A stretch of 64,000 nucleotides of DNA from an uncultured Acetatifactor sp. (GTDB taxonomy: Bacteria > Bacillota > Clostridia > Lachnospirales > Lachnospiraceae): positions 29,224 to 93,223 of the forward strand of contig CAJUQT010000010.1 of assembly GCA_910588225.1 (NCBI GenBank), given 5' to 3'. The notes beneath the pieces are model-generated. The model had not been told where the DNA came from, did not search any database, and saw nothing but the letters and a program-made list of their open reading frames with translations. A program made the translations under genes and the position numbers. This document shows, piece by piece, positions 2,249 to 31,590 of the stretch. Position 1 is the stretch's first letter, and every line of letters starts with the position of its first letter.

Positions 2249-2298
2249 TTCCAGCCTCCCAATCTGAAATTGCTTTTAAATACCTGAATCCACATTCA

Positions 2299-3234
2299 TC
2301 ATGGCAGCAAATCTTTCTGCCATTGTACCTTCTTCACTCTTTTATATAAAGCCTTAATTTCTTCTCCAGTGGCCAGCAATTCCGAATATGCGCTGGCGCT
2401 TCCGGCGGCAAGCCCCATGGAAAAAGCATAGCCATAATCCTTCCGCTCTGTCCATCCTGCAAGAAATCCTGCTACCATGGAATCTCCGGCTCCCACACTG
2501 TTTATCAACCTGCCCTCCGGCGCCGGTGCGGAATAGAATTTTCCGTCTTCCGCCGCCAGGACAGCCCCTTCTCCGGCCATGGACACCAGCACATTCAGAG
2601 CTCCCATTTCCCGGAGTCTCTCCGCATAAGGCATTGCTTCCTCCCGGCTCCGCAGCCTGATCCCGAAAATATCCCCAAGTTCATGATGATTAGGCTTCAC
2701 CAGAAACGGATGATACTTCAGCACATTCAGCAGCAGCTTCTTCTCTGCATCTACCACAGCCATCATTTTCCGTCCTTCCAGCCCTGCCAGAATTCGCTCA
2801 TATAGATCATCCGGAAGAGAGCCGGGAATACTGCCTGCCAGCACAAGTACATCCCCGGCCTGCAACGCACTCAGCTTCTCTGTCAAACATGTGACTTCCC
2901 TGTCGCTCACATCCGGTCCCCGGCCGTTGATTTCCGTGCCCTCTGCGGATTTCAGTTTCAGATTAATCCTGGATATTCCTCTCTTCAAAAAAATGAAATC
3001 CGTTTTCAAACCTGTTTCCTCCACCCGGCGGACAATCTCTTCTCCCGTAAATCCGGCTGCAAACCCCAGAGCAACATTCTCCACTCCCAGGTTATTCAGC
3101 ACTGTGGAGACATTGATCCCTTTCCCTCCAGGAAGAATTTGCTCGAAATCTGTTCGATTTGTCATTCCCTGTTTAAAGTTTTCTACTGAAACAATGTAAT
3201 CCAGGGAAGGATTGCATGTGACCGTATAAATCAT
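2299..3234 (-). CDS. PfkB-family sugar-phosphate kinase, 1-phosphofructokinase/LacC type
   Basis: MIYTVTCNPSLD, PGGKGINVS, KPNHHEL and the PfkB signature NSVGAGDSMVAGF. Confidence 0.88.
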   Translation of the reverse strand: MIYTVTCNPSLDYIVSVENFKQGMTNRTDFEQILPGGKGINVSTVLNNLGVENVALGFAAGFTGEEIVRRVEETGLKTDFIFLKRGISRINLKLKSAEGTEINGRGPDVSDREVTCLTEKLSALQAGDVLVLAGSIPGSLPDDLYERILAGLEGRKMMAVVDAEKKLLLNVLKYHPFLVKPNHHELGDIFGIRLRSREEAMPYAERLREMGALNVLVSMAGEGAVLAAEDGKFYSAPAPEGRLINSVGAGDSMVAGFLAGWTERKDYGYAFSMGLAAGSASAYSELLATGEEIKALYKRVKKVQWQKDLLP

Positions 3235-3402
3235 TTTCTTCTCCTGTCAATCCTGTATCTCTCATATTTTATATGTAAATTGACACCATGTTTTCCAGTA
3301 TAGCATTTTTTTCCTGTAAATGCTATCCAGATTTTCGTATCTTTTTTATAAAAAGAATGTAACAACTCGGTGCCCTGTCCGAACGATTTCGAACAAAATT
3401 CA

Positions 3403-3436
3403 GGGAGGTTATGACTCATACAAATCACAACCTCCC
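3403..3436 (-). terminator. Stem-loop after the GH140 gene, probable terminator of the isomerase-to-GH140 operon
   Basis: GGGAGGTT-A-TGA ... TCA-C-AACCTCCC inverted repeat about 50 bp downstream of the GH140 stop. The U-tract is weak. Confidence 0.5.
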
Positions 3437-3487
3437 CGTCTTTATCTATGTTGATAAGCCTGGCAGCTCCATTTCACTGTTGACAGT

Positions 3488-4846
3488 TTAACCTTCTGCC
3501 AGTAGTACAAGCACCACGTCCGTACCATCTTCTCTCTCAGGCGGATTAAACGTCGCCTCTTCTCCGGTCACCATGCTTACGTAAGTGTACATTCCCGTCA
3601 CAGGGTCCATCCAGTAAGCCTGCAGTTTCCTGCCTCCATAGGCTTTCAGGGACAGAGCAATCGGTCTCCCTGTCACTGTGTAGGCAAGCAGAAAGTCATC
3701 GCCGGCCAGGACACTGATGTAGTCATATTTTTCGCCCTGTTCACTCAGCAGGTATTCCTGTGCGGGATGTCCCTTTTCAAAGCCCACCCGTTCACACAGC
3801 TTCTTCAGATGAACCATCTGTGCTCCGCCCGGATGATGAATGGCTTCCGACCAGAGATATTTCGCACCATATGCCCCTTCCCTGGAAGCATCCTTATAAA
3901 ACTGCATGATGGAATTATGGCCATACACATGCCCGGCCGCCCCGGCAAACACACTCCAGTAAGCATACCTTCTCACATCCGCAGCTTTCCAGTAAGGCTG
4001 GGAATTATCATGCAGTCCCTGCCGAATCCACTCATAGGAAGGTTCTCCGTCCAGCACAGGTCTGACGGGGCTCTTCTCCAGATCCCGCTTCACATATTTC
4101 CAGCTGTCCTCGCCGAACCATTCTTCCTTCGCCGTATTGTCATCCCACTTCTGCATGCTGACCTGGTCATAACGCCTGTGGCCGGACTGGAACAGGTTAA
4201 AGTCCAGCCAGTCCTCCTCATGAAACCAGAGGGAAGAACTGGTTCTGCCAAAAGGATGATACGTTACCAGACGATCCGGATTGTCTTCTTTCATGCGCTT
4301 TCCCATGTGTCGGAACACTTCAATAGCCACATCTCCCCGCACATCTCCTCCCACAACCCAAATGATATTCGGAAAATCATGATATCTGTTCAGCACAAAA
4401 TCCATATAGGCATCCACATTTTCCATATTCATGCGGCCGCTTTTTACCACACTGCTGCCCCACACAGGAAGAATTCCCATGTAAAGTCCCAGCTCGCGCG
4501 CCATTTCCATCACCGCGTCCACATGGGTCCAAAAGCTTCCTTCCGTATTCGGTCTGGCAGGATCTTCTTCTGTCAGCGCGCTGTCCCCGGCCAGATTCTT
4601 CTGGTCCACGGTATGGATAAAATCCGCCAGAATTACATTATAGCCCAGATCCTTCCGGTTCCTGAGATACACATAGCTCTCTTCCAGAGTCAGCTGGTGA
4701 AATAACAGCCAGGCCGTATCGCCCAGCAGAAAGAAAGGTTCCTCGCCGCAGCAAAAATGTCTGCCGTCCTCTGCTACCTTCAAAAGCCCTTTTTCCCAGG
4801 GAGCCTTTGCTTTTAATTCTGTTTTCATGTATACTTTTGTCTCCAA
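3488..4846 (-). CDS. Glycoside hydrolase family 140 (DUF4038, apiosidase-like) with a C-terminal collagen-binding-like domain
   Basis: Motifs FFLLGDTAWLL, GYNVI, WVVGGD, TYHP, FNLFQSGH and DGEPSYEWIRQGLHD resemble GH140 endo-apiosidases. No signal peptide. ATG at 4828 is an alternative start. Confidence 0.8.
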   Translation of the reverse strand: METKVYMKTELKAKAPWEKGLLKVAEDGRHFCCGEEPFFLLGDTAWLLFHQLTLEESYVYLRNRKDLGYNVILADFIHTVDQKNLAGDSALTEEDPARPNTEGSFWTHVDAVMEMARELGLYMGILPVWGSSVVKSGRMNMENVDAYMDFVLNRYHDFPNIIWVVGGDVRGDVAIEVFRHMGKRMKEDNPDRLVTYHPFGRTSSSLWFHEEDWLDFNLFQSGHRRYDQVSMQKWDDNTAKEEWFGEDSWKYVKRDLEKSPVRPVLDGEPSYEWIRQGLHDNSQPYWKAADVRRYAYWSVFAGAAGHVYGHNSIMQFYKDASREGAYGAKYLWSEAIHHPGGAQMVHLKKLCERVGFEKGHPAQEYLLSEQGEKYDYISVLAGDDFLLAYTVTGRPIALSLKAYGGRKLQAYWMDPVTGMYTYVSMVTGEEATFNPPEREDGTDVVLVLLAEG

Positions 4847-4878
4847 TCTCTATAAATTATATTTTCTGGCCACCCAAA

Positions 4879-6336
4879 TTAAAAAGTCATGGACACCGCC
4901 TTTTTCCAGGCAGCATACTTTGCCGCTCTGTTCTCCTCCGACATCTCAGGCGCATACGTCCTGTATTCCATCCGGGAGAACAGGCTTTCCCGGCGGTAAA
5001 TGCCTGCGGTAAGTCCGGCCAGATAAGCCGCCCCTATGGCGGATAGTTCCTCCTGTCCTGCGGCGCTTACCCTCACATTCGCAAGGTCGCTCTGCATCTG
5101 CATCAGATATTGATTCTTCGTAGGGCCTCCGTCTGTGCGAAGCTCCTGCAGCCCACAGCCGCTGTCCTGCTCCATAGCCTTCAGCACATCCGTCACCTGA
5201 AAAGCAATGCTGTCCAGGGCTGCCCGGACAATTTCCGCCCGCCCCGTGGTACGGCTCATTTCCGCAAGCACTGCCTTCGCATCACCTTTCCAGTAAGGAG
5301 CCGACAGTCCTGTGAAGGCAGGCACCAGAATACAGGTATCCGCAGGGTTCGCCTGCAATGCTAATTTTTCCGTCTCCCCGGGAGAGGAAATCAGACCTAC
5401 ATCCTCCTTTAACCAGGTAATCACAGCCCCTGTATAATTGATATTTCCCTCCAGCACATAGGTAGCTTTTCCATCTATTCCCCAGGCAAGGGAGGCAGCC
5501 AGACCATTTTTGCTCTGTACAAAGCTTTCTCCGATATTCATCATCACCGAAGAACCGGTTCCGTAAGTGGCCTTCACCATACCGCTTTCATGACAACCCT
5601 GTCCAAACAACGCCCCATGGGAATCCCCCAACATGGACAGAATCGGAATTTCTTTCTCCAGAAAGCCTTCAAAATCCGTGGTCCCGAAGCAGCTGTTGCT
5701 GTCACAGACCTCCGGCAGAGCCTCCATAGGAACGCCGAACAATGTGCAGAGCTCTGAATCCCAGGTAAGGGTACGTAAATTGAAAAGCTGGGTGCGGGAC
5801 GCATTGGAATAGTCTGTTTTATATAAATGATTTTTCGTCAACTTAAAAAGCAGCCAACTATCCACAGTACCGAAATGCAGCTTTGTATCCCCTGAAAGTC
5901 CTGAAACCACATTTTCCATCAGCCAGGCCATCTTCGCTGCAGGGAAATAGGCTGACAGAGGAATTCCTGACCTTTCATAGACAGTCTCTCCATTGTCTTT
6001 CAGCCGCTCCACAACCGTTTCTGCTCGGTTACACTGCCACACGACAGCGTGATTCAAAGGACGGCCCTGCTCATCCCACAGTACGGTAGTCTCTCGCTGA
6101 TTGCTGATACCCACGGCCGCCAGCTGTTCTTTTGGGACAGCCGCTCCTTCCACCGCCATTTTCACTGCTCGGATAACATTCCGGTATATTTCCTCCGGAT
6201 CATGAGAGACCCAGCCCTTTTCATTGACAATCTGTCTGTGAGGCACATCGGCCCGATATACGATTGCTCCGTCCCCGTCAAACAGCATGGCTTTGGTTCC
6301 CTGAGTACTCTGGTCGATTCCAATGATATATTTCAT
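4879..6336 (-). CDS. FGGY-family carbohydrate kinase (glycerol-kinase-like; candidate apulose kinase)
   Basis: IGIDQSTQGTK, ISNQRETT, TDYSNASRTQLFN, GDSHGALFGQ, KATYGTGS, DGGPTKN. Confidence 0.85.
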   Translation of the reverse strand: MKYIIGIDQSTQGTKAMLFDGDGAIVYRADVPHRQIVNEKGWVSHDPEEIYRNVIRAVKMAVEGAAVPKEQLAAVGISNQRETTVLWDEQGRPLNHAVVWQCNRAETVVERLKDNGETVYERSGIPLSAYFPAAKMAWLMENVVSGLSGDTKLHFGTVDSWLLFKLTKNHLYKTDYSNASRTQLFNLRTLTWDSELCTLFGVPMEALPEVCDSNSCFGTTDFEGFLEKEIPILSMLGDSHGALFGQGCHESGMVKATYGTGSSVMMNIGESFVQSKNGLAASLAWGIDGKATYVLEGNINYTGAVITWLKEDVGLISSPGETEKLALQANPADTCILVPAFTGLSAPYWKGDAKAVLAEMSRTTGRAEIVRAALDSIAFQVTDVLKAMEQDSGCGLQELRTDGGPTKNQYLMQMQSDLANVRVSAAGQEELSAIGAAYLAGLTAGIYRRESLFSRMEYRTYAPEMSEENRAAKYAAWKKAVSMTF

Positions 6337-6374
6337 AAATCAGCCCTCCTGCAGAGCCCTTCGGCTCCGTTTGT

Positions 6375-7319
6375 TCATAACCTGTCTGACACTGTCAGAG
6401 CCTTCTGTACTGTCCGGGCAATTCCTTCCGCATCCAGTCCGTAATGGGCGAAAATTTCCCTGTTATTTCCCCCAATCATATGTCCGTCCGGCAGGGCCAG
6501 ATTCATCACACGTCTGGGGCAATGGGCGGATATCACCTGCGCTGTAATGCTTCCCAGTCCCCCGAAAGGAGAATGCTCTTCCACCGTCACCACCAGCTTT
6601 GCTTTCTCTGCCGCCGCCAGAAGAGTCTCTTCATCTATGGGCTTCACGCAGTACATATCAAGCATCCCCACACTGTAACCCTTTTCCCGCAGGAGCTTTC
6701 CCGCTTCATAAGCATTGGGCACCATCTCACCGCAGGCCACCAGCAGAATGTCTTCCCCCTCCATCAGCACATTTGCTTTATTCAGGGTAAATTCCATCTT
6801 TTCATCGTATACATCTTCAGTGGCAGATCTGCTGACCCGCACATAAGCCGGCAGTTCATCCTGCAGAAGTGCCTGCATCAGCTTCTCTGTCTGAAAGCGG
6901 TCGCTTGGCAGATACACTCTCATGTCCGGCAGGGCGGCAAAGGCCGCAATATCCTGACAGGAATGATGGGTCATCCCCAACGCTCCGTAACTGACGCCTC
7001 CACTGATACCGATTAAGGTCACGTTCGTTTTGGAATAAGCCACATCCACCTTCGCCTGCTCATAGCTTCTGGTGGAGAGAAAGCAGGCCGGGGAGGCGGC
7101 GAATACCTTTTTCCCGCAGGAAGCCAGCCCTGCGGACACTGTGACCAGATTCTGTTCCGCAATCCCCATCTCCACGAACTGTCGGGGAAATTTATCCGCA
7201 AAAGCAGACAGGGAAGCGGATCCTCTGGAATCGGAGCAGACTACCACAATATCCCGGTCCTGTTCCGCCGCCTTTAACAGGGTATCACATATCACCTGAC
7301 GGTTGGTTATCTTATTCAT
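6375..7319 (-). CDS. Transketolase, C-terminal (pyrimidine-binding) subunit
   Basis: FVEMGIAEQNLV, YGALGMTHH, VTVEEHSPFGGLGS. Overlaps the N-subunit stop codon. Confidence 0.9.
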   Translation of the reverse strand: MNKITNRQVICDTLLKAAEQDRDIVVVCSDSRGSASLSAFADKFPRQFVEMGIAEQNLVTVSAGLASCGKKVFAASPACFLSTRSYEQAKVDVAYSKTNVTLIGISGGVSYGALGMTHHSCQDIAAFAALPDMRVYLPSDRFQTEKLMQALLQDELPAYVRVSRSATEDVYDEKMEFTLNKANVLMEGEDILLVACGEMVPNAYEAGKLLREKGYSVGMLDMYCVKPIDEETLLAAAEKAKLVVTVEEHSPFGGLGSITAQVISAHCPRRVMNLALPDGHMIGGNNREIFAHYGLDAEGIARTVQKALTVSDRL

Positions 7320-8134
7320 GCCAGCACCTCCTCCAGCTCCCGTACTGCTGTTTTATACTGTTCCTCTGTCATCACGCCATGATGCCAGCTCTTGTTGTCT
7401 TCCATGAAGGAAACTCCTTTGCCCTTCACCGTATGCGCGATCACAGCAGTGGGGCGTCCCTTTACCTCTGCGGCCTGCTCATAGGCCTCCAGAAGCTGCC
7501 CGCAGTCATTGCCATCCTCCACGGTAATCACATGCCAGCCGAAAGCTCTGAATTTCTCCCCCATATCGTCACTGCACATTACTTCTTTTGTGCTGCCGCT
7601 GATCTGCAGGCGATTTAAATCCACAGTCGCACACAGGTTATCCAGTTTATAATGAGCCGCGGCCATCATAGCTTCATAATTAGAGCCTTCCGCCATCTCT
7701 CCGTCTCCCAGCACCACATAGGTCCGATATTCCCTGCCGTCCATCTTCGCCGCCAGCGCGGTTCCCACACCCAGCGCCAGACCATGGCCCAGAGAGCCTG
7801 AATTCATCTCGATGCCCGGCACATCGGTATTTGGATGTCCAATAAATCTTGAACCATAAGCGCTGAAGGTATTGATCGCTTCCTGTTTGTCGAAAAATCC
7901 TTTCTCCCCAAGCACTATATATAACGCATCCGCACAGTGCCCCTTACTCAAGAAGAAACGATCTCTGTCCGAAGAATTCCAGTTCTCCGGGGACACCTTC
8001 ATCACCTTAAAATACAGTACTGTCAGAATATCCATCACACTCAGATCTCCGCCCACATGGCCTGCGGCGGAACGATATACTTCCTCAATTACATCCCTCC
8101 GCAATCCGTAAGCTTTCCTTGTCAATTCATCCAT
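7316..8134 (-). CDS. Transketolase, N-terminal (TPP-binding) subunit
   Basis: GHVGGDLS, LSKGH, SGSLGHGL and the TPP motif GDGEMAEG...N. Start moved to ATG 8134 (AGGAAAGG RBS) from the ORF-track start at 8212. Confidence 0.9.
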   Translation of the reverse strand: MDELTRKAYGLRRDVIEEVYRSAAGHVGGDLSVMDILTVLYFKVMKVSPENWNSSDRDRFFLSKGHCADALYIVLGEKGFFDKQEAINTFSAYGSRFIGHPNTDVPGIEMNSGSLGHGLALGVGTALAAKMDGREYRTYVVLGDGEMAEGSNYEAMMAAAHYKLDNLCATVDLNRLQISGSTKEVMCSDDMGEKFRAFGWHVITVEDGNDCGQLLEAYEQAAEVKGRPTAVIAHTVKGKGVSFMEDNKSWHHGVMTEEQYKTAVRELEEVLA

Positions 8135-8199
8135 ATTTTTTCCTTTCCTGCAATCTGCCTGACTATTGCCTTCTTGTCGGAACATTCTCCCACAATTCC

Positions 8200-9606
8200 T
8201 TAGTACCCACACACTTTACCCTTCACTTCATCCTCATTATCATCATACAGGTCAGGTTTCACCCCTATGTATTTGCAGGCTTCGTACAGTACAGGCACCA
8301 CATCCTTATGGATTCCTACACAGTGATGGATATAGGGTCCTTCCACAATCTTCGTCTCCAGGCGTTTCCAGTTCTTCACTTCCACCCACACATAAGTACC
8401 CTTTGTATAAGGTCCGTCCACACCTGCGGCATTGCCCAGAAGCATAGAATATTCCCCATTGTCTCCGTCGAATCGGCACAGAGTCATCTCCCCGTGCTTT
8501 GCCTCCGCTTCCACTGCTCCGGGATGAGAGAACGCCAGAGGATATCCGATGGTTGGCTTACAGGAGGCACAGGACAGCGGCCAGGGACCACAGTGCTGCA
8601 GCAGTTCTCCATTCTCATTGTCCGGATGACGCACAGTCCAGTCTGCGAAGAAGCTTCTGGCCTCGTCCATGCCTGCTGCCTCTGCCAGAACGGCGGTTAT
8701 GGCTCCGTGAATATCCGTCTCACATACCACCGGCAGTCCTTCCTCGTTCAGGAGACTGTTGGCAGCACAGGGCATAATGCCGATTTCTCCCTGGAGAGCA
8801 TTCCAGCACTGAATCGCCGCCGCATTACAGCCGTATTGATCCGCCAGATTCCGCATTGCCACCTTCAATGCCGCAACGGTCTCCAGCTCCTCATCCTTAA
8901 TCGCAATATTGAAATGCTCTCTGCAGTAGGCAACTGTCTCCGCCACCTTTGTTCCTTCTGCTTTCGCCTTTTCTATCTCATCTTTCAATTCCGGCATGGG
9001 AATAGGAGACAGCTGAATATTGAATTTCTCCAGCAGTTCGCCTTCATTACACATGGTAGACCAGAAGTCAAATGGCCTGGGCCCAATCTGCAGGATTCTG
9101 GTGCTGCGGAAGGTTTTCACAACATTACAGACTGCCAGGAAGTTGCGGATGCCCTTCTCGAATTCCACATCCTCCAGTCTGCAGTTGCACAGATAAGTAA
9201 ACGGCACACCGAATCGTCTCAATACCTTACCGGTAGCAAACAGTCCGCACTGACTGTCTCTGAGACGCACGCCATTCTCATCCGGCCTCTCATCTCTGGG
9301 TCCCCAGAGCAATACCGGCACATTCAACTCCTTCGCAAGCCTTGCCACTTCATATTCCGTACCGAAATTCCCATGCGGAAAAAACAGTCCGTCCACCTTC
9401 TGCTCCCGGAACTTCTCCGCAATCCGGATTCTGTCTCCGTCATCGTGAAGCAGTCCGTCCTCAGCGATATCTGTGATATCCACAAAAGATACTCCCATGC
9501 TTTTCAGCTTCTCTCTGGTCAGATTCGCATATTTTACCGCGTCCGGAGCAGAGAAAATACTTCTTCTGGTCGGTGCATAACCCAATACAATTTTCGCCAT
9601 ATTCAT
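8200..9606 (-). CDS. L-fucose/L-arabinose isomerase-family protein
   Basis: NFGTE, LLWG, RDSQCG, AIQCW, CETDIHGA, HCGPWP and a C-terminal HH. GGAGGT RBS. Confidence 0.8.
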   Translation of the reverse strand: MNMAKIVLGYAPTRRSIFSAPDAVKYANLTREKLKSMGVSFVDITDIAEDGLLHDDGDRIRIAEKFREQKVDGLFFPHGNFGTEYEVARLAKELNVPVLLWGPRDERPDENGVRLRDSQCGLFATGKVLRRFGVPFTYLCNCRLEDVEFEKGIRNFLAVCNVVKTFRSTRILQIGPRPFDFWSTMCNEGELLEKFNIQLSPIPMPELKDEIEKAKAEGTKVAETVAYCREHFNIAIKDEELETVAALKVAMRNLADQYGCNAAAIQCWNALQGEIGIMPCAANSLLNEEGLPVVCETDIHGAITAVLAEAAGMDEARSFFADWTVRHPDNENGELLQHCGPWPLSCASCKPTIGYPLAFSHPGAVEAEAKHGEMTLCRFDGDNGEYSMLLGNAAGVDGPYTKGTYVWVEVKNWKRLETKIVEGPYIHHCVGIHKDVVPVLYEACKYIGVKPDLYDDNEDEVKGKVCGY

Positions 9607-9646
9607 ACCTCCATCGAATTATATATTATTAATACGGAATACTTTC

Positions 9647-9734: not shown

Positions 9735-9917
9735 GACACTGGAATTGTGCTTTTGAATTCCAGTGTGCAGATTCTATAATCAAAATTATATTGTTGCCTT
9801 ACTATCATGCAAGGTAAGGCAACAGGAATGCATGGGGAATACTGTATAAAATATAATGTATTATCAATGAAAATGTTTTAAGCAATATATTTCAGATATA
9901 GGAATGAGGAGAAAGAT

Positions 9918-10934
9918 ATGTCTGTCACCGCCAAAGAACTGGCCAGCCTGTTGAATCTGTCCGAAGCCGCCGTATCCATGGCCCTGAACGGCAAACCTGG
10001 AGTCAGCACTGCCACACGCAAAAAAGTCGTGGAAACCGCCGAAAAATACGGCTATGATTTCAGCCGGATTACCGCAAAAGCGCCTGCGCCCCGGCCTTCT
10101 CAGGGCACTCTGTATTTCATTATCTACCGCAAGCACGGCGCGGTAGTGACCGATACTCCCTTTTTTTCTCAGCTGTCTCAGGGGATTGACTCCGGCTGCA
10201 AAAAACACCACTACTTTTTAAACGTATTTTATCTGGATGAAGGGGAAAATCCGGAACGTCAGCTCCGGGAACTGATTCATTTCGACTGTAAGGGAATTCT
10301 TCTGCTGGGCACGGAAATGCTGGAAAATGATGTGCTTCCCTTTCTGAATCTGAAACTGCCTCTGGTCATCCTGGACACCTGTTTTGAGACCATAGAGGCG
10401 GATTATGTTCTGATCAATAATGCGCAGGGTGCCTATCTGGCCACCTGCCACCTGCTTTCCCGGTGCAGAGAACAGCCCGGATACCTGCGCTCTTCCTACC
10501 CAATCAATAATTTTACGGAACGGGCGGACGGATTCTATCGGGCAGTCCGTCGAAACGGCATGTCCACCTCCAACTCAAAAGTACATTTCCTCTCCCCCTC
10601 TGCGGAAGGGGCTTATGCGGATATGACAGCGATTCTGAGTACCGGAGAGAAGCCGGCCCGCTGCTACTTCGCCGACAATGACCTGATTGCCTGCGGCGCC
10701 ATGAAGGCGCTGAAGGAAAAAGGATACCGGATTCCTCAGGATGTGTCCATTGTGGGCTTCGACAATATGCCAATGTCCGCCTATACGGAACCGGCTCTCA
10801 CCACTGTCAACGTCCCGAAAGAATACATGGGAGAGATGGCCGTCTGCCGTCTCTCCCAGCTTATCGAATCCCAGGGGAATATTCCCGTGAAATTGGAGAT
10901 TTCCACCACCCTTGTAAAGCGGAAAACCGTATAA
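9918..10934 (+). CDS. LacI-family transcriptional regulator
   Basis: N-terminal HTH (TAKELASLLNLSEAAVSMALNGKPGVS) and a sugar-binding domain with ND.IA.G and SIVGFDN. Divergent from the isomerase operon. Confidence 0.92.
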   Translation: MSVTAKELASLLNLSEAAVSMALNGKPGVSTATRKKVVETAEKYGYDFSRITAKAPAPRPSQGTLYFIIYRKHGAVVTDTPFFSQLSQGIDSGCKKHHYFLNVFYLDEGENPERQLRELIHFDCKGILLLGTEMLENDVLPFLNLKLPLVILDTCFETIEADYVLINNAQGAYLATCHLLSRCREQPGYLRSSYPINNFTERADGFYRAVRRNGMSTSNSKVHFLSPSAEGAYADMTAILSTGEKPARCYFADNDLIACGAMKALKEKGYRIPQDVSIVGFDNMPMSAYTEPALTTVNVPKEYMGEMAVCRLSQLIESQGNIPVKLEISTTLVKRKTV

Positions 10935-11049
10935 TTAGATTCCTGCGGAAACAAGCCGCACCCCGTGTCGAAAACGCCTTATTCCATTCCTGCAAATGCT
11001 GATTTTTCCGTAACAGTTCAGCGCCCTGTCCGAACTGTTACGATTTTCC

Positions 11050-13017
11050 TCAGCCCTCCAGCCTGTGCAGAACAGCCTCGAATACATTGGCCGCCGCCCA
11101 GAGATTGTAGCTGAACCAGGAATTATATGCTTCTCCGGTATCATACCGCTCCGTCACCAGCCCGTCGGAGGGACACCATCTCTCAGACAGGACACCATAC
11201 TGCCCATATCCCGTCCGGTCCGGATACAGCTCCAGCGTCTGCATCATCCAGGCAATGGAATCCAGCGCACGCTCTGTGTAATAAGCATCCCCCGTCACTT
11301 CTCCCAGGAACAGCAAATCCTCATCCGCCAGCACACCCATTGGATGAATATGGGGATTGGAAACGGACGTAACAGAACCTCCGCAGGCATTCCAGCCGGC
11401 ATTTACCGGAGGATGCTCCGGACGGGTAGGATAGCCATACCGCCACAGGAATTCATATCCCGCGCTGTACTTCATATCCTCCAGGAATTCTGCTTCTTTT
11501 GTATATTCGTACAGCATCCGACTTCCATGCAGAAAGCTTAGATTCCCCTCCTGATCCACCGCCTTCCAGGTGTCCATTGGCGCGCCATAGCAATCCAGGT
11601 TGATGACAAACTTACGATAATAAGCATGTGCCTTCCTGGCCTTATCCACATAGGAGGCATCTCCTGTCAGCTGCGCAAGATACATCAGCCCCGGCACAAA
11701 CCAGCATCCCGCAAAGCCTTCCCAGTCCAGCACCTTCCTTTCCTGCGCCGAATAAGTATAGCCGAAAGCCCCGTCCTCTCTCTGGAGAGAAACCACGGTA
11801 TCCAGCACATTTTTACAGTTGCTCAGCCATTCTTCCTTCCAGGAAATTCCTTTTTCCTTCAGGAAAGATACTGTCTTTAAAATATAATATACCGCGCTTC
11901 CCTGAGTGTAAGCACAGTGGCAGTCTCTACAGAGACCATAATAAGTCCACCATCCATTCAACCGGTCATCAGAATTCTCGTTCACCGGTGCATATAAATC
12001 ATTGAAGAAGCCTGACTCCTCCCGATAACCGGCCACAATCCTGTCCAGCATCGTTTCTCCCGACATGGCCTGAGACAACCGGCCTGCCGCAAAATCTCCC
12101 AGCAGATATCTGCTCATCACAAGAGGAAATCCAAGAATGGCCCCGCCTGTCCAGCCGATTTCCACCACATTCCTCCAGGGCTCCAGCTTTGTATTGTCAT
12201 AAGGCTGGCATTTTCTGTTGGTGTATTCTCCCGCTTCCGAATCATAGTTCAGGCAGCAGAACGTATCCAGCATGGCTTCTGCCGCCTGTCGAAAGCTTCC
12301 GGTGTACACAGGTCTCACATGAATTCTTTCATATTCCCTGCGCACAATCCTGTGAATGCCCAGCCTTCCCTCTCCTGCCACAGTATAAATCTTCCCTGCA
12401 ACGCAGGCTTCTCTCCCCCGGCTCCCGGTGGAAGCGGCAGGTACGGAACGATTCAGGAAGGTCACCGGGTCGTTGGTGTAACCCAACGTAACTCCGAAAC
12501 AGTCCGGCAATGCAGCGAAGATACCGTTTCTGATCAGACCGCCCTCCTCTTTTCCTTCTTCCTCTGAATAAGGGTCTACAGATATCGCGGCAGTTCCCCT
12601 GCCACAACAGAGCGCCGACAAAGGCACAGCCGCCCGGTCCGCCCGAAATTCCCAATAGGGCGAACAGAATGCCGCCTCGGGATGAATTTCCGTAAGCAGA
12701 GGAAATTCTCCGATACGCACCTCCTCCGCATGATTGTCCCCGTAAATATTACAGGGAATCACATGGAAATAATCCTTTTCCTCCGGCAGGGAAAGCTGCA
12801 GCTTCATTCGGGTGTCATAGGAAGCATGGTATTCCATTCGATAACTGATTTCTCCCTCCGATCCTTCTTTGTCAAAAGCCACCCGGTATTCCGCATCCTT
12901 CGTCCGAAATTCACAGCCGCCTTCCGTATAACAGGAGTCCGGCACAGGAATCCATATATCATTTTTCCCGTAAAAAATATTCACTTTTAAGTTGAATCCA
13001 TTTAACTTTAATATCAT
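11050..13017 (-). CDS. Hypothetical 655-aa protein, possibly an (alpha/alpha)6-barrel glycoside hydrolase-like enzyme
   Basis: Long ORF with host-like codon use. Helical C-terminal region with QREDGAF, LTGDASYVDKARK and VTGDAYYTERA repeats typical of six-hairpin folds. No family recognised. Confidence 0.6.
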   Translation of the reverse strand: MILKLNGFNLKVNIFYGKNDIWIPVPDSCYTEGGCEFRTKDAEYRVAFDKEGSEGEISYRMEYHASYDTRMKLQLSLPEEKDYFHVIPCNIYGDNHAEEVRIGEFPLLTEIHPEAAFCSPYWEFRADRAAVPLSALCCGRGTAAISVDPYSEEEGKEEGGLIRNGIFAALPDCFGVTLGYTNDPVTFLNRSVPAASTGSRGREACVAGKIYTVAGEGRLGIHRIVRREYERIHVRPVYTGSFRQAAEAMLDTFCCLNYDSEAGEYTNRKCQPYDNTKLEPWRNVVEIGWTGGAILGFPLVMSRYLLGDFAAGRLSQAMSGETMLDRIVAGYREESGFFNDLYAPVNENSDDRLNGWWTYYGLCRDCHCAYTQGSAVYYILKTVSFLKEKGISWKEEWLSNCKNVLDTVVSLQREDGAFGYTYSAQERKVLDWEGFAGCWFVPGLMYLAQLTGDASYVDKARKAHAYYRKFVINLDCYGAPMDTWKAVDQEGNLSFLHGSRMLYEYTKEAEFLEDMKYSAGYEFLWRYGYPTRPEHPPVNAGWNACGGSVTSVSNPHIHPMGVLADEDLLFLGEVTGDAYYTERALDSIAWMMQTLELYPDRTGYGQYGVLSERWCPSDGLVTERYDTGEAYNSWFSYNLWAAANVFEAVLHRLEG

Positions 13018-13152
13018 TTATACTACATTCCTTTCCACAATTTACAGATATAATGCCACACAGATTATTCTTTTCCATATAATGTTCCAATTACCTGTCT
13101 GAACTACTGCCTATTCGTTCCCATCCCTTACTCTCTATCAGAAAAGCAGATA

Positions 13153-15837
13153 TCAGAAAGACTTCCGATACACAATCTCCCACTCTCCGGAACCGCACTG
13201 TGCAGTGAAAATCCCCTCCTTCAAAGCAAAATCCAGCCCCTCAGTCCTGATCTCTTCGGCGCCTTTTTCCAATCTGATCTCCGCGGTGGTATTGTGTGGA
13301 ATTGTAATCTGCAGCCTGCGGACATCCTCCGCCTCCCCCTTTTCCCAGCGAACCTTCAACACACCGTACACACTCTCGTAAGAGCCCTCCGCAAAGTCGA
13401 ATGCATCTCCTGTCTGGGGACTGATAATGGAATGATGATAACCCGGGTCCTTCTCGTCGATTTCCATTCCCAGCACCACTCTGTAAAGCCAATCCCCCAC
13501 AGCGCCGTAAGCATAATGATTGAAGGAATTCATATCCGGACTCCACATGGTCCCGTCTGGCTTCATGCCGTCCCAATGCTCCCAGACAGTGGTTGCTCCC
13601 ATCTTTACCTGATAAAGCCAGGAAGGGAAATCCTCCTTCAGCAGAAGGTCATAAGCCTCCTTCACATAGCCGTTACGGCTCAGCGCATGGCAGAAATAAG
13701 GCGTTCCCACGAAACCAGTGACCAGATGGCCATTCTCCTTCTTCAGCAGCTCTGTCAGACGCCGGGCTGTCTGGGCCCTGAAAGCTTCCGGCACCAGATC
13801 AAAATACAACGCCACAATGTGAGCCGTCTGGGTCTGGGCTGTCATGGTTCCGTCCGCCTGAAAGAAGGTTCGTCTGAACTTCTCCACAATCTTGTCATGC
13901 AGGGCACCGTACCGCACCGCATCCTCCCGCCTGTCCAGAATCCCGGCAATTTTCACGAAAAGTCCTGTGGAATAGGCAAAATATGCCGTACAGGTCAAAT
14001 CGTTTGGCGTGGCGCCGAAGTAGCTTCCCTCCTCTGCATCCAGCGCCACCCAGTCCCCGAACTGCAGCCTGTAATTCCATATGTAATCTGTGGAATGCTC
14101 TTTCATGAAATCAATCCACTTCCGCATACTCTCATACTGCTCTTCCAGAATTGTCTTATCCCCGAACGTCAGATACATGGTCCAGGGATTAATCACTGCC
14201 ACATCCGCCCATGCCGCCGCGGAATGAGTCCCCTGGGACAACAGCCAGTCATTCTCTTCCTTCCCGCTGATAATGTCAGGCACCACATGAGGCACACCTC
14301 CCTCCGGCGTCTGATCCGCCGCCACATCCTTCAGCCATTTCCGGAAAAAAGTATACGTGTTCATAAGCCAGCAGGCAGTCCTGCAGAAAATCTGGGCGTC
14401 TCCCGTCCATCCCACTCTTTCGTCTCTCTGAGGGCAATCCGTGGGAATATCCAGGAAATTCCCCTTCAGACCCCAGAGAATATTCTGCTGCAGTCTGTTC
14501 ACCAGCGGATTGGAACACCGAAAGGTTCCCGTCTGCTCCATCTGGGAATAAAGTGCAAACGCCAAGAAATCTTCCGCCTTCACTTCTCCGGGCCATTGCA
14601 GAATCTGTACATACCGAAATCCCATAAAGGTAAAAAGAGGGTGATACTCTTCCGGCCCGTCCCCTTTGCAGATATAATGAATCTCCTGCTTCGCGGAACG
14701 CAGATTTGCCGTATATACATTTCCCTGTGCATCCAGTGTCTCAAAGCATTTCAGAACAATCTCACATCCCCTGTCCGCCTGCACTCGAAAATTCACCCAT
14801 CCGGTCAGGTTCTGACCGAAATCAATCACAGTTTCCCTGTTGGGTGTCACAATCACTTCCCTGGCCTGAAGCTTTTCCATTTTCCGCACCCTGCTGCCCG
14901 CCTGGGCCGTGAGCGCTTCCATCGGGAACTCAATTCTGCTTACCTTTTTCCATTTCCCTTCATCTTCCGACTCCAGTCTGGCATCATACCATTCTCCGTC
15001 GTAAATCTCCGAAAAAGTTACTGGACCGGGTCGTCCCTGCCAGCTTTCGTCCGTCACGAAAATCTCTTCCCTGCCATCCTTATACCGCACTATCATCTGC
15101 ATCAGAAAAGCTGTTCTCGTACCGTAATTGTTCCTCAATAGCAGGAATCCCATCTTTCCTTTGTACCATCCTGCTCCCAGCATGACCTCCAGAACATTTT
15201 CTCCTTCTTTCAGCAGTTCTGTCACATCACAGGTCTGGTAACATAGATGCTTATGATAAGAAGTCCAGCCAGGGGTCATTTCGTCCTCTCCCTCCTTCTC
15301 TCCATTGATAAAAAAGCGGTACAATCCCAAAGCTGTCCCACACACATAAGCCGACTCCACTTCCCCCTTCAGATAAATCCTTTTCTTCAGACAGGTACTG
15401 TTGGATTTCTCGCTGTCTGATTCTTCCTCCACGGTAATGAAACCTGCCTTCCACTGGCTCCTGTCCAGAATTCCTGTCACAAAGGAAGCAGTGTCGCTGT
15501 AAGGACTCTTCTCCACGCCATCGCTCACCCGGACTCGCACAAAATATTCCCTGCAGGATTGAATCTCGCCTGATACTTTTCCTTTTTCATTGATTCGAAT
15601 TCCCTGCCCCTCTGTCTTCTCCCATGGAATTTCCACATGAACAGATTCTTCGCTCTCCACGAAACCACTGTCATAGACGAGCCTTTCAAACTGCAAATCC
15701 TCCGCAATCTGCAGCTGATAGGACTTTTGTACCACGCTTTTCCTGTCGCTCTCCAGCACCCAGCCAAACCATGGAATCCCTCCCAGACCTGTAGGCTGTT
15801 CCACATACTCCATTCTGATTTTTATCGCTTTAAGCAT
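13153..15837 (-). CDS. Alpha-L-rhamnosidase, GH78
   Basis: DFGQNLTGW, DIPTDCPQRDERVGWTGDAQ, GATTVWEHW, MNSFNHYAYGAV. Start moved to ATG 15837 (GGGAGAG RBS). No signal peptide. Confidence 0.92.
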   Translation of the reverse strand: MLKAIKIRMEYVEQPTGLGGIPWFGWVLESDRKSVVQKSYQLQIAEDLQFERLVYDSGFVESEESVHVEIPWEKTEGQGIRINEKGKVSGEIQSCREYFVRVRVSDGVEKSPYSDTASFVTGILDRSQWKAGFITVEEESDSEKSNSTCLKKRIYLKGEVESAYVCGTALGLYRFFINGEKEGEDEMTPGWTSYHKHLCYQTCDVTELLKEGENVLEVMLGAGWYKGKMGFLLLRNNYGTRTAFLMQMIVRYKDGREEIFVTDESWQGRPGPVTFSEIYDGEWYDARLESEDEGKWKKVSRIEFPMEALTAQAGSRVRKMEKLQAREVIVTPNRETVIDFGQNLTGWVNFRVQADRGCEIVLKCFETLDAQGNVYTANLRSAKQEIHYICKGDGPEEYHPLFTFMGFRYVQILQWPGEVKAEDFLAFALYSQMEQTGTFRCSNPLVNRLQQNILWGLKGNFLDIPTDCPQRDERVGWTGDAQIFCRTACWLMNTYTFFRKWLKDVAADQTPEGGVPHVVPDIISGKEENDWLLSQGTHSAAAWADVAVINPWTMYLTFGDKTILEEQYESMRKWIDFMKEHSTDYIWNYRLQFGDWVALDAEEGSYFGATPNDLTCTAYFAYSTGLFVKIAGILDRREDAVRYGALHDKIVEKFRRTFFQADGTMTAQTQTAHIVALYFDLVPEAFRAQTARRLTELLKKENGHLVTGFVGTPYFCHALSRNGYVKEAYDLLLKEDFPSWLYQVKMGATTVWEHWDGMKPDGTMWSPDMNSFNHYAYGAVGDWLYRVVLGMEIDEKDPGYHHSIISPQTGDAFDFAEGSYESVYGVLKVRWEKGEAEDVRRLQITIPHNTTAEIRLEKGAEEIRTEGLDFALKEGIFTAQCGSGEWEIVYRKSF

Positions 15838-15864
15838 TTCACACTCTCCCTTGTATTTTCTACC

Positions 15865-15901
15865 CTTCATAAGGTCATCATATACAGATGACCTTATGAA
15901 G
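15865..15901. repeat. Perfect 15-bp inverted repeat with a 7-bp spacer
   Basis: CTTCATAAGGTCATC-ATATACA-GATGACCTTATGAAG, 28 bp upstream of the GH78 start. Confidence 0.9.
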
Positions 15902-16075
15902 AATACGCTGTATCCTCCATCAACTGGACGAAAGAAAGCTGCCTTTTGCTTTCTTTAATATGGCCATTATATCAGACCCCGCTGATTTTACAATGCCCTT
16001 TTTCCACATGGCATTGAGGATGCGGAAATGTTATGATAAAATTAAGACGGATTGATATGGAAGGAGTTAACTTTT

Positions 16076-16945: not shown

Positions 16946-16993
16946 TAAAGAAATCTTTGATCCGGAACTGTCACTGGAAATACTTGTGGTAGT

Positions 16994-28425: not shown

Positions 28426-28485
28426 TTCTTCCGCCTTTCTCAGAAAACTGAAACATTGGTAGAAAATTTTGTCTTACGCTTTATT

Positions 28486-31590
<3,105 letters not shown>

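Follow-up and report, generated by a model that had tools for sequence, protein, structure and literature searches.

Pectin, RG-II and apiogalacturonan in particular, ranks among the main carbon sources in the diet and the environment, and its breakdown is, to our knowledge, understood almost solely in Bacteroides. Three described systems come close to the protein family analyzed here. The PL27 L-rhamnose-alpha-1,4-D-glucuronate lyases (BACCELL_00875, PDB 5NOK/5NO8; BT0263) are, like this family, tied to rhamnose- and uronate-containing plant glycans, but they are secreted or periplasmic Bacteroides proteins acting on gum-arabic AGP, whereas the present family is cytoplasmic and linked to pectic-oligosaccharide importers. 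The GH105 unsaturated rhamnogalacturonyl hydrolases YesR/YteR (yesOPQR of B. subtilis) resemble it in being cytosolic (alpha/alpha)6 enzymes encoded after an SBP-permease-permease set; YesR finishes imported pectic oligosaccharides, and YesO is homologous to the SBPs linked to the present family. GH105 proteins are, however, about 370 aa long without a beta-sandwich, whereas the protein described below has 655 aa and carries one. In Yersinia and Dickeya, the oligogalacturonate lyase Ogl (PL22) together with TogMNAB degrades, in the cytoplasm, oligogalacturonides imported via a TogB-type SBP, and of the solved SBPs TogB is the one most closely related to those linked to the present family. Ogl has an HxH-containing metal site reminiscent of an NPHxH motif in this family, although its beta-propeller fold is wholly unlike the fold found here and the likeness is an analogy of role only.

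Other enzymes share the barrel. GH76 alpha-1,6-mannanases, AGE enzymes (cellobiose 2-epimerase, YihS) and LanC-like proteins have the six-hairpin barrel and the hairpin signature xTGDxxYLxxA, as does the present family, but the likeness is limited to about two hairpins and all of them lack the N-terminal beta-sandwich. The beta-L-arabinofuranosidase/RG-II aceric-acid hydrolase family GH127 (DUF1680) also uses an (alpha/alpha)6 catalytic domain, on RG-II; its E-x-C...CC catalytic/zinc motif, with a Glu/Cys3 zinc site and a Cys nucleophile, does not align with the superfamily studied here, and its domain order is reversed, with the barrel at the N-terminus.

The gene under study comes from a mouse-gut Acetatifactor and was analyzed within a window of 64,000 nucleotides, the whole stretch of DNA examined (Table 1). 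An earlier note on this DNA had claimed a 655-aa reading frame, and a frame with an ATG start, 655 codons and a stop was found there. It is a real gene and not a chance ORF, given the 445 or more homologous 90%-clusters and the more than 100 columns that are invariant across 40 family sequences of 48–90% identity. The maximum Kyte-Doolittle value of any 12-mer in the first 45 residues was 0.8, the first beta-strand of the model starts at residue 2, and a TM-like segment is lacking; a signal peptide, said in the earlier note to be absent, was found in none of the family members examined. Judged from its sequence, the protein is soluble and cytoplasmic.

Table 1. Positions of the features described in the text, numbered along the window.
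Feature	Position	Strand	Basis
Apiose utilisation operon, whole	1055..9606	-	Pfam
GH140 "Apiosidase"	3488-4846	-	Pfam
FGGY kinase, split transketolase, FucI-like isomerase	4879-9606	-	Pfam
LacI-family regulator, between target gene and apiose operon	9918..10934	+	Pfam
Perfect hairpin, 11-bp stem, between convergent target gene and lacI	11009..11042	.	Read from sequence
Target gene, unnamed two-domain (beta-sandwich + (alpha/alpha)6) family, founding-type member	11050..13017	-	ORF, searches without match, model
(alpha/alpha)6 six-hairpin barrel, residues 216-655, 12 helices	11053..12372	-	Model, Foldseek
SERW, residues 611-614	11176..11187	-	Alignments
NPHIH, residues 554-558	11344..11358	-	Alignments
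PMDTWKAVDQEGN, residues 480-492	11542..11580	-	Alignments
QREDG, residues 412-416	11770..11784	-	Alignments
EIGWTGG, residues 286-292, N-terminus of inner helix 2	12142..12162	-	Alignment, model
N-terminal beta-sandwich domain, residues 1-215	12373..13017	-	DSSP of model, invariant columns
FRADR motif, residues 124-128	12634..12648	-	Alignments
Intergenic spacer GH78-target, 135 bp	13018..13152	-	GGAAAGGA ribosome-binding site
GH78 alpha-L-rhamnosidase, upstream partner in presumed bicistronic operon	13153..15870	-	Pfam
Sigma-70-like promoter upstream of GH78, TTGTAA-16-TATAAT with TG extension	15966..15993	-	Consensus match only

The surroundings of the gene were as the earlier note had described them. 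ORF and Pfam calls placed a GH78 gene immediately upstream in the same orientation, 135 bp away, and its product contains five GH78 Pfam domains, namely Bac_rhamnosid6H (the best, E 5e-120) and four accessory domains. A lacI gene faces the 3' end of the target gene. The apiose context was recovered in Pfam as well: the operon encodes a FucI-like isomerase, the N and C parts of a split transketolase, an FGGY kinase, a GH140 apiosidase, a PfkB kinase and an MFS transporter, and the isomerase, transketolase, FGGY kinase and GH140 genes all lie on the minus strand. Among the neighbor genes no apiose-specific NCBIfam equivalog model was matched, and the assignments are at family level. The window encodes no TogB-like ABC system.

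The AlphaFold model of the protein (pLDDT 89.1, pTM 0.91) agreed with the proposal of a beta-rich N-terminal part followed by helical repeats: residues 1–215 are beta and residues 217–655 form 12 helices, which by DSSP lie between residues 242 and 654. The suggested resemblance to (alpha/alpha)6 six-hairpin enzymes was confirmed by the model and by Foldseek, and no non-barrel fold was found. All long inter-helix loops are on one face of the barrel, and these loops carry the invariant residues. Foldseek against the PDB gave 207 matches at E<=1e-3, and the best 50 of these 207 were all carbohydrate-active (alpha/alpha)6 enzymes. The top match, PL27 BACCELL_00875 (5nok/5no8; E 2.7e-12), spans both domains, runs full-length on 5nok_A (TMq 0.46) and shares the arrangement of beta-sandwich plus (alpha/alpha)6 barrel. 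The next family trails it by about four orders of magnitude in E-value; the PL27 match has a TM of 0.45–0.46, 10% identity and an rmsd of 10.5 A. AGE epimerases, GH76, GH116 and GH94 followed. The AGE-type matches (cellobiose 2-epimerases, YihS, mannose isomerase) reached E ~1e-8 with a TM normalised to the target of ~0.6, and across GH76, AGE and LanC-like chains this TM was 0.57–0.68; GH94 cellobiose phosphorylases and GH15/GH65-type chains reached E ~5e-8, with a TM of 0.23–0.34 for the GH94/GH65-type chains.

The superfamily comprises about 802 representatives (50% identity clusters) from at least seven phyla. Genome loci span Firmicutes, Planctomycetota, Verrucomicrobiota, Spirochaetota and Lentisphaerota (Victivallis), and a distant branch extends to Actinomycetota, Chloroflexota and Sumerlaeota. 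Among 80 genome loci Bacteroidota were absent, save for one "Paludibacteraceae" bin with a Firmicute-type operon. The earlier statement that no named family was recognizable was upheld, since searches of Pfam, NCBIfam and the PDB, by sequence and by profile, gave no confident match; members carry no family name in Pfam, NCBIfam, GenBank or UniRef annotation or the PDB and are annotated as hypothetical throughout. The literature, searched by topic and by accession, yielded no characterized member. Ten distant members of 700–1000 aa had no Pfam domain at all, and a second large homologue search returned only "hypothetical" names and two faint PF07944 labels.

Each named six-hairpin family was also examined separately, and by sequence the protein fell into none of PL27, GH76, AGE, GH127 and GH105/GH88. 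CAZy families are defined by sequence. Neither phmmer nor the family, superfamily and distant-branch profiles retrieved any PL27 chain at E<=10 from PDB chains that include 5nok/5no8. For GH76, PF03663 scored E 0.2 (11.6 bits against a gathering threshold of 25.9), and the superfamily profile matched GH76 Aman6 only locally, over 85 residues (E 5e-5); a local match to LanCL2 had E 0.004. AGE membership was taken to mean PF07221 above gathering and a single-domain barrel of ~400 aa; the protein scored E 0.031 (13.9 bits against 23.4) and has an extra conserved beta domain of 215 aa, and in one distant member this Pfam domain, GlcNAc_2-epim, was matched with E 0.0078. PF07944 of GH127 did not match the protein, a precomputed PF07944 match was present in 2 of 120 distant-branch members, and the PDB profile search contained no GH127 chain. 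When the superfamily profile was aligned by hhalign with a bona fide GH127 neighbor at another locus (L058:17260-19275), the alignment covered 112 columns that do not include the E-x-C...CC motif, at a probability of 13%. The narrow family has four invariant cysteines; these are replaced in the distant branch, so a shared Cys/zinc mechanism of the GH127 kind was rejected. For GH105/GH88, PF07470 gave no match, and YteR (1nc5/2gh4) was matched by profile with E 0.04–0.55 over ~80 residues. The protein had been put forward earlier as a candidate new glycoside hydrolase family. The lack of a named family and the six-hairpin fold stand, and the hydrolase chemistry is what we infer; the group has a credible claim to being a new family of carbohydrate-active enzymes.

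Conservation is concentrated in six long loops on one face of the barrel. The motifs quoted in the earlier note were all located (EIGWTGG at residue 286, DQEG at 488 and SERW at 611, and the xTGDxxY motifs as LTGDASY at 450 and VTGDAYY at 574). A core of D, E, H and R residues is kept in the distant branch at only 21% identity (hhalign probability 100%, E 2e-52), as is the GW(T/S)G part of EIGWTGG. In the N-terminal domain, IPCNIYGDN (86–95) and W-x-FRADRAA-x-P (122–132) are strongly conserved even in this 21%-identical branch, and D127 and R128 of FRADR are near-invariant superfamily-wide; by analogy with GH15/GH65/GH94/PL27-type architectures, the FRADR loop would reach the active face of the barrel. 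In the barrel, all 56 superfamily sequences have D482 of PMDTWKAVDQEGN, and the distant branch keeps the acidic pair D488/E490 in the form S-E-D; D482 and D488/E490 are candidate catalytic carboxylates. R413 and D415 of QREDG, N554, H556 and H558 of NPHIH, and E612 of SERW are conserved superfamily-wide; the conserved candidate carboxylates are D415, D482, D488/E490 and E612. The core further contains a conserved H367 and about five arginines, and the H556/H558 region with H367 is a possible metal or acid/base site.

In Firmicutes the dominant context was TCS-SBP-permease-permease-target, and many Clostridia/Lachnospiraceae show the order RR(AraC)-HK-SBP-perm-perm-target, in some cases as a stand-alone unit set among housekeeping genes. 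In many gut and rumen Clostridia the pectic-oligosaccharide importer is followed by this protein as its sole cytoplasmic enzyme. ABC permeases were present within 10 kb of the target gene in 21 of 54 dereplicated loci. A profile built from 15 target-linked SBPs matched TogB (2UVH/2UVG) with E 2e-57 and YesO (5Z6B) with E 4e-41, and other sugar SBPs with 1e-18 or worse. The reported ligands of TogB/YesO are oligogalacturonides and dGalA-Rha-Gal (PMC8839585, PMC7596534).

Association with pectin or apiose loci recurred across independent lineages and phyla in the locus survey, as the earlier note had expected, and the apiose operon gene set is joined with the target gene in other lineages too. 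A locus with a 53%-identity homologue reads UxaC-UxaB-UxaA-TCS-ABC-target-GH4-isomerase-TK-TK-FGGY-GH78; in a locus with a 62%-identity homologue the target stop overlaps the GH140 start, and loci with 44–45%-identity homologues read GH140-MFS-GH3-target beside UxaC/UxaA/UxaB. GH78 or GH78-like neighbors were found in Acetatifactor and Opitutaceae, and GH28, GH43, GH95 and GH2 adjoin the gene at some loci. The earlier prediction of action on RG-II side chains or apiosyl/rhamnosyl glycosides held as far as the pectic context goes, but only a minority of the 54 dereplicated loci have apiose genes (about 7) or GH78 (6) within 10 kb; the family-wide TogB/YesO-like importer points to acidic pectic oligosaccharides generally and not specifically to apiosyl/rhamnosyl (flavonoid) glycosides. 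Contexts without an evident pectin fit were GH1/MFS (Opitutaceae), sulfatases (Spirochaetes) and orphan copies such as L087, and a Pfam summary of the 112 remaining singleton neighbors revealed no further dominant partner. The distant actinobacterial branch sits in cytoplasmic all-glycosidase operons (ROK-SIS-GH38-GH2-homolog-GH1-GH4), in which no uronate genes were found.

It is quite likely that the protein cleaves carbohydrates, represents a new enzyme family and serves pectic-oligosaccharide utilization. More specifically, we give about an even chance to a cytoplasmic exo-acting hydrolase that finishes imported side-chain-bearing pectic oligosaccharides; we infer each of enzyme status, hydrolysis, catalytic residues and bond cut. 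In most Firmicutes a TogB/YesO-like ABC importer would bring in galacturonate-containing pectin fragments, and in the Acetatifactor window uptake would presumably occur through the MFS transporter encoded in the apiose operon next to the gene. The protein would then finish small galacturonate-containing, side-chain-bearing oligosaccharides inside the cell in an exo fashion. The beta-sandwich is predicted to pack against the barrel, whose putative active face would present D415, D482, D488/E490, E612, H367, H556/H558 and several arginines, with D127/R128 conserved alongside. The presumably co-transcribed GH78 would remove L-rhamnose and the neighboring GH140 D-apiose, with the freed apiose entering the transketolase pathway. 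With GH78 and GH140 as partners, the substrates are most likely RG-II or apiogalacturonan stubs, for example X-Rha-alpha-1,3'-Api-beta-1,2-GalA. Most likely, two of the conserved carboxylates would hydrolyze a glycosidic bond and so release or expose an acidic sugar. If the reaction were assigned, CAZy would gain a family and a step in Gram-positive pectin utilization would be filled; gut cross-feeding on RG-II fragments would be easier to explain, and annotation would improve in thousands of genomes and metagenomes. The discovery of CAZy families is a regular event, and this one is a solid lead, not a conceptual surprise.

The top structural neighbor is a lyase, and the His/Arg-rich core would also fit other chemistries, namely those of a metal-dependent beta-eliminase such as Ogl, of a phosphorylase and of an AGE-type isomerase. 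A PL27-like exo-lyase, which is unlikely, would cut, by beta-elimination, sugar-(1->4)-uronate linkages such as L-Rha-alpha-1,4-GalA in RG-I or, as Ogl does, GalA-GalA, to give a free sugar and a 4,5-unsaturated uronate, with a conserved His as base and an Arg or a metal neutralizing the carboxylate. The two-domain Foldseek match, the common architecture, the Arg/His-rich core with its HxH motif, the GH78 and uronate genes in the context and the TogB/YesO-like SBPs are all in its favor, and PL27 itself removes L-Rha from GlcA (PMC8377490). Against it stand the low TM and identity of that match and the failure of every profile to retrieve a PL27 chain. Distant homologues in GH38/GH2/GH1/GH4 operons without uronate genes make uronate-dependent chemistry unlikely to be ancestral, which favors hydrolysis over elimination as the shared chemistry. 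The adjacent catabolic genes, UxaCBA, handle saturated galacturonate, which argues in the same direction; KduI/KduD were not noticed among them, and the conserved loop tyrosine of toroid lyases was not seen.

There is a slim chance that the family cuts a pectic linkage whose known enzymes are confined to Bacteroidota, or one that has no known enzyme at all, possibly releasing aceric acid, Dha or Kdo. An RG-II stub such as AceA-alpha-1,3-Rha-alpha-1,3'-Api would be a possible substrate, and the His cluster might form a metal site new for six-hairpin glycosidases. Planctomycetota loci have a DHDPS-type aldolase, a PdxA-type dehydrogenase, a DUF1537 kinase and an Fe-ADH as neighbors (an acid-sugar catabolic set), and one of them (L055) has the apiose transketolase set in addition. 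PdxA-like ApnO with DUF1537 OiaK is, we assume, the D-apionate route. ApnO/OiaK/OiaX are named in PMC12994016, which backs that route only in part. If rare acids were released, the Planctomycetota set would be a catabolic route for the acid sugar, and Lachnospiraceae would cross-feed on RG-II fragments through this enzyme; Bacteroides thetaiotaomicron was reported to secrete an AceA-Rha-Api trisaccharide on RG-II (bioRxiv 10.64898/2026.03.13.711244).

A sub-case of the hydrolase reading, whose probability is contained in that of the whole, is an equivalent of GH105/GH88 (YesR/YteR-like). Its target would be the terminal 4,5-unsaturated GalA that extracellular pectate or RG lyases leave behind; by hydrating the vinyl-ether there, the enzyme would free this unsaturated residue from the imported oligosaccharide. 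This sub-case is improbable: the gene takes the operon position that YesR has in yesOPQR and the SBPs are homologous, the model has the (alpha/alpha)6 barrel, and GH78/GH28 neighbors suit stepwise degradation of the RG-I backbone, but the YteR similarity (E 0.04–0.5) is insignificant and confined to ~80 residues, GH105/GH88 proteins lack the N-terminal beta-sandwich, distant-branch contexts lack uronates and kduI/kduD linkage was not noticed. One target locus encodes a GH88/105 protein besides, although the two are not mutually exclusive.

It is quite improbable that these proteins form a new family of glycoside phosphorylases with the cytoplasmic location and beta-sandwich plus (alpha/alpha)6 build of GH65/GH94, which would convert an imported disaccharide and inorganic phosphate to a sugar-1-phosphate and a free sugar. 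A sole cytoplasmic enzyme behind an ABC importer is typical of phosphorylases, the superfamily-wide Arg/His could bind phosphate, and GH94 and GH15/GH65-type chains are among the Foldseek matches, but their TM is low, the C-terminal beta domain of the GH65/GH94 families is lacking, and no phosphomutase or sugar-1-P-processing gene recurs as a neighbor. An AGE-like epimerase or isomerase, in which two or three histidines would carry out aldose-ketose conversion or C2 epimerization at the reducing end without cleavage, draws on the AGE-type Foldseek matches, the faint GlcNAc_2-epim scores and the conserved H367, H556 and H558, but is highly improbable, in that those scores are far under gathering, AGE enzymes lack the beta-sandwich that here carries superfamily-invariant residues, an importer with an isomerase as its only enzyme would leave glycosidic bonds intact, and apiose loci have an isomerase already.

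Returning to the Acetatifactor locus, GH78 and the target gene presumably form a bicistronic operon, and no terminator-like hairpin was found in the 135-bp spacer between them. Mouse-gut metatranscriptome contigs cover the target gene and span the GH78-target junction; they bridge the convergent lacI-target junction too, so DNA carry-over is possible and the contigs are weak evidence of co-transcription. The hairpin between the two convergent genes is a probable terminator shared by both, as read from its sequence, and the lacI gene beside the target gene is kept in the Acetatifactor clade.

An open reading frame of 655 codons, whose product is hereafter called the target, lies directly downstream of a co-oriented GH78 gene and converges on a lacI-family gene; ORF calling and Pfam agreed with the earlier note on this arrangement. 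The motifs quoted there were all located in the target (EIGWTGG at residue 286, LTGDASY at 450, DQEG at 488, VTGDAYY at 574 and SERW at 611), and the signal peptide that it had reported missing was indeed not found, nor was a membrane segment. The target ATG is preceded by the ribosome-binding site GGAAAGGA, and no terminator-like hairpin was found in the 135-bp GH78-target spacer. Beyond lacI, an apiose operon on the minus strand was identified by Pfam, with a FucI-like isomerase, a split transketolase, an FGGY kinase, a GH140 "Apiosidase" (E 3e-100), a PfkB kinase and an MFS transporter. The target sequence was found in mouse-gut metagenomes, and the nearest genome was that of Acetatifactor muris DSM 23669 (91% protein identity, identical gene order). 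The gene was also present in mouse-gut metatranscriptome assemblies, in which contigs span the GH78/target junction; since the convergent lacI junction was spanned too, these contigs argue only weakly for a bicistronic GH78-target transcript. Within the spacer, a 2-base deletion relative to the window was seen at 13057 in all four runs compared, a strain-level difference located shortly before the target ribosome-binding site.

Features of the window around the target gene and the replication origin
Feature	Position	Strand	Evidence
LacI-family gene, downstream of target, convergent	9918-10934	+	Pfam
Perfect hairpin, 11-bp stem, after target stop, between convergent target and lacI	11009-11042	.	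read from sequence
Target ORF, ATG start, 655 codons	11050-13017	-	ORF call
GH78 alpha-L-rhamnosidase, 905 aa, five GH78 Pfam domains	13153-15870	-	Pfam, best E 5e-120
Sigma-70-like promoter, extended -10, upstream of GH78	15993-15966	-	consensus match
gyrA	37427-40003	-	
gyrB	40100-42193	-	
recF	42214-43314	-	
dnaN	43580-44701	-	
dnaA	45005-46369	-	
yidC	47733-49076	+	
mnmG/gidA	51383-53323	+	

Family searches with the target gave nothing in Pfam at E<0.01; at E<10 only GlcNAc_2-epim (E 0.031, 13.9 bits) and GH76 (E 0.2) appeared, both far under their gathering scores. NCBIfam gave no meaningful match, and phmmer against all PDB chains gave none at E<=10. In a collection of 5.8 billion proteins, 445 related clusters were recovered at E<=1e-3, all named "hypothetical" or "uncharacterized" and none carrying a Pfam domain, while a profile search of 1.84 billion representatives returned 802 clusters at 50% identity (112 with E<=1e-30). 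Over 100 columns were invariant among forty members of 48-90% identity. A distant branch of the superfamily (~560-1000 aa; Sumerlaeota, Micromonospora, Actinoallomurus, Chloroflexota, Bifidobacteriaceae) was unambiguously homologous to the family over both domains (hhalign probability 100%, E 2e-52, 21% identity), and it has no family name either. A literature search by accession found no paper citing family members. Near-identical Firmicute-type TCS-ABC-target operons, with proteins 83-88% identical to one another, were found in loci labelled Paludibacteraceae (L037), Succinivibrio (L039) and Anaerovibrio (L032), that is, in MAG bins of one project assigned to very different taxa. This probably reflects mis-binning or recent transfer, and the taxonomic breadth of the family should therefore be read cautiously.

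The structure of the target was predicted by AlphaFold2 with a 40-sequence alignment (pLDDT 89.1, pTM 0.91). In the model, residues 1-215 form a beta-sandwich and twelve helices lie within residues 242-654, with six long inter-helix loops on one face holding nearly all invariant residues of the alignment. Foldseek returned 207 PDB matches at E<=1e-3. The top match was the PL27 L-Rha-alpha-1,4-GlcA lyase BACCELL_00875 (5nok/5no8; E 2.7e-12), aligned over both domains at a TM of only 0.45-0.46 and 10% identity; the model shares with PL27 the architecture of an N-terminal beta-sandwich followed by an (alpha/alpha)6 barrel (PMC8377490). Among the best 50 matches, cellobiose 2-epimerases, YihS, mannose isomerase, GH76, GH116, GH94, GH63 and a GH15-type dextran dextrinase came next at E ~1e-8. 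The model and these matches bear out the earlier guess of a six-hairpin enzyme, and the description "unclassified" also stands, as no Pfam, NCBIfam or solved-structure family covers the target.

Profiles of the family, the superfamily and the distant branch (A1, A2 and A3) were searched against all PDB sequences, and their matches were local and confined to two hairpins. No PL27 chain was found by any of the three. The GH76 enzyme Aman6 was matched at E 5e-5 over just 85 residues and was rejected. Weaker matches were obtained with LanC-like proteins (E 0.004-0.07), with the "putative glycosyl hydrolase" structure 3p2c (E 0.011), which we take to be GH125, and with YteR/GH105 (E 0.04-0.5). Two distant members carried a precomputed GH127 (PF07944) label; one of them, P0335, matched no GH127 structure in the PDB, and hhalign of A2 with a genuine GH127 neighbour gave 13% probability over 112 columns outside the E-x-C...CC catalytic/zinc motif. 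The target has 19 cysteines, and four are invariant in the narrow family. These four first suggested a GH127-like Cys/Zn site, which was ruled out as a shared core because cysteines are replaced in the distant branch (C438 by L, C615 by H). No solved structure from the family was found in the PDB by sequence, profile or Foldseek searches. The target thus belongs to the six-hairpin fold class and to no family tested. Its gene is real, conserved and apparently expressed, and the family, unnamed though its fold class is known, is a candidate new CAZy family, judged against Pfam, NCBIfam, the PDB, source annotations and papers.

Across the superfamily, the N-domain retains IPxxxYGxN and W-x-FRADRAA-x-P, with D127 and R128 near-invariant. 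The barrel retains GW(T/S)G, H367, QRxDGxFG (R413, D415), GxPxD (D482 invariant in 56 sequences), an acidic pair at 488-490, R526, NxHxH (N554, H556, H558), TGDxYYxxRAxD (R583, D586) and E612. Judged from alignment and model, one face would combine an N-domain loop with several carboxylates, three histidines and some five arginines, a core such as an enzyme pocket should have; the arginines would suit an anionic substrate.

Genomic context was compared in 80 loci, dereplicated to 54 at <70% identity, from Lachnospiraceae and other Clostridia, Spirochaetes, Phycisphaerae/Tepidisphaeraceae, Opitutaceae and other Verrucomicrobiota, and Victivallis. The commonest neighbours were CUT1-type ABC permeases (21 of the 54). 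Importer and two-component system genes showed a stereotyped order in Firmicutes, RR(AraC)-HK-SBP-permease-permease-target, sometimes as a self-contained module amid housekeeping genes (L089); the homologues P0036 and P0025 come from minimal TCS-ABC-target modules. In a 53%-identical Lachnospiraceae lineage, one co-directional cluster reads UxaC-UxaB-UxaA-RR-HK-SBP-perm-perm-target-GH4-(FucI-like isomerase)-TK_N-TK_C-FGGY-GH78; in a 62%-identical lineage the GH140 start overlaps the target stop codon, and 44-45%-identical Clostridia have GH140-MFS-GH3-target adjoining UxaC, UxaA and a UxaB-like gene. GH43 (overlapping the target), GH95, GH28 and GH2 also recur, and Opitutaceae have GH1-MFS-GH78-like-target. 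Apiose genes were found within 10 kb of the target in 7 of the 54 loci and GH78 in 6. The proposed co-occurrence with GH140/apiose genes and GH78 therefore recurs across phyla and is not universal. No further dominant partner emerged when the other 112 singleton neighbours were scanned in summary (GFO/IDH/MocA 5, GDSL esterases 2, GH127 1, GH88 1). Downstream of the target, three Acetatifactor-related loci (L007, L008, L053) encode a 457-474-aa protein without Pfam domain and a class-V aminotransferase, and L007 also encodes a 946-aa protein without Pfam domain.

Planctomycetota have GH2-DUF3826-(unnamed 582 aa)-target-DHDPS-type enzyme-PdxA-DUF1537 kinase-Fe-ADH, and at L055 the apiose transketolase set is also present. 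This cluster, with XylR/AraC regulators, is conserved in L055, L057, L063, L065, L071 and L078 (~6000-17000) and resembles an as yet undescribed pathway of acid-sugar catabolism tied to glycan degradation; its 582-aa protein without Pfam match (c20) is a second unnamed family.

A profile built from 15 target-linked SBPs matched Yersinia TogB (2UVH/2UVG) over its full length at E 2e-57, a Pectobacterium-type SBP (4RY1) at E 5e-54 and B. subtilis YesO (5Z6B) at E 4e-41, with all other sugar SBPs at E 1e-18 or worse. TogB has been crystallized with digalacturonate, unsaturated digalacturonate and trigalacturonate (PMC8839585); YesO, encoded by yesOPQR together with the cytosolic GH105 hydrolase YesR, binds dGalA-Rha-Gal from RG-I (PMC7596534). 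Given these SBPs and its operon position, the target occupies the slot held by YesR in yesOPQR or by Ogl behind TogMNAB. It would thus be a cytoplasmic enzyme finishing imported acidic pectic oligosaccharides. Of the substrate context proposed in the earlier note, the pectin/apiose association held, but the family-wide signal points to acidic pectic oligosaccharides and not specifically to apiosyl or rhamnosyl glycosides. In keeping with this role, B. thetaiotaomicron grown on RG-II is reported in a 2026 preprint to secrete AceA-alpha-1,3-Rha-alpha-1,3'-Api, 2-O-Me-Xyl-alpha-1,3-Fuc, apiose and Kdo among small products, and its GH140 mutant to build up Rha-alpha-1,3'-Api-beta-1,2-GalA (bioRxiv 10.64898/2026.03.13.711244); the delta-BT1012 and delta-BT1003 strains of that preprint are sources of Rha-alpha-1,3'-Api-beta-1,2-GalA and AceA-Rha-Api. 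These compounds are plausible cross-feeding substrates for a GH78/GH140/target set.

Very probably, the target is a carbohydrate-cleaving enzyme in pectic-oligosaccharide utilisation. The narrower reading, that the target represents a new glycoside hydrolase family and acts exo in the cytoplasm on GalA-containing, side-chain-bearing pectic oligosaccharides, has about an even chance; candidates for the group released are rare acidic sugars of RG-II and terminal GalA, saturated or unsaturated. A PL27-like lyase, suggested by the top fold match and by a core rich in Arg and His, is unlikely. Distant-branch members lie in Actinoallomurus (L092, 2840-13424) and in a Bifidobacteriaceae MAG (L094, 880-5492), and the actinobacterial operons, with overlapping gene boundaries, read permeases-ROK-SIS-GH38-GH2(GlcNase-type)-homolog-GH1-GH4-BadF kinase and ROK-SIS-GH38-homolog. 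No uronate genes were found in these all-glycosidase cytoplasmic operons, so the shared catalytic core is unlikely to depend on a uronate C5 proton, and a different, non-pectic (mannoside/aminosugar-type) substrate is suggested for this branch. Moreover, the catabolic genes adjoining the target, UxaCBA, serve saturated galacturonate, and sequence searches gave no connection with a PL family; on these three grounds hydrolysis is favoured over beta-elimination. Within the hydrolase reading, the special case of a GH105-like hydratase is doubtful. A phosphorylase, which would fit a cytoplasmic, ABC-coupled protein with GH94/GH65 fold matches, has a slimmer chance still, and an AGE-type epimerase is the most improbable.

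The window also holds a chromosomal replication-origin region (37427-53323), which places the rhamnose/apiose island ~30 kb from oriC. The first gene of the apiose operon (8200-9606, minus strand) encodes a 468-aa protein with a sub-threshold Fucose_iso_C match (E 1e-6) and 103 bits against the sulfoquinovose isomerase SftI (cutoff 700), and no Pfam match was obtained for its L084 homologue. Several lineages keep this gene together with those for the FGGY kinase and the split transketolase, which makes its product a candidate apiose isomerase from a poorly annotated family. Between lysS and gyrA (33881-37336, plus strand), a gene for a DNA methylase (N6_N4_Mtase, 625 aa) precedes one for a 492-aa protein carrying DUF7309, DUF6930 and PRiA4_ORF3 domains; this origin-proximal pair could have been inserted as a mobile or defence-related element. 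A second sugar cluster (23519-31578, minus strand) encodes a NagA-like amidohydrolase, a NagB-like deaminase, a 935-aa transglutaminase-core protein and a 1030-aa GH2 LacZ-type beta-galactosidase. In L009, transglutaminase-like/Big_2 proteins lie downstream of the target homologue as well.
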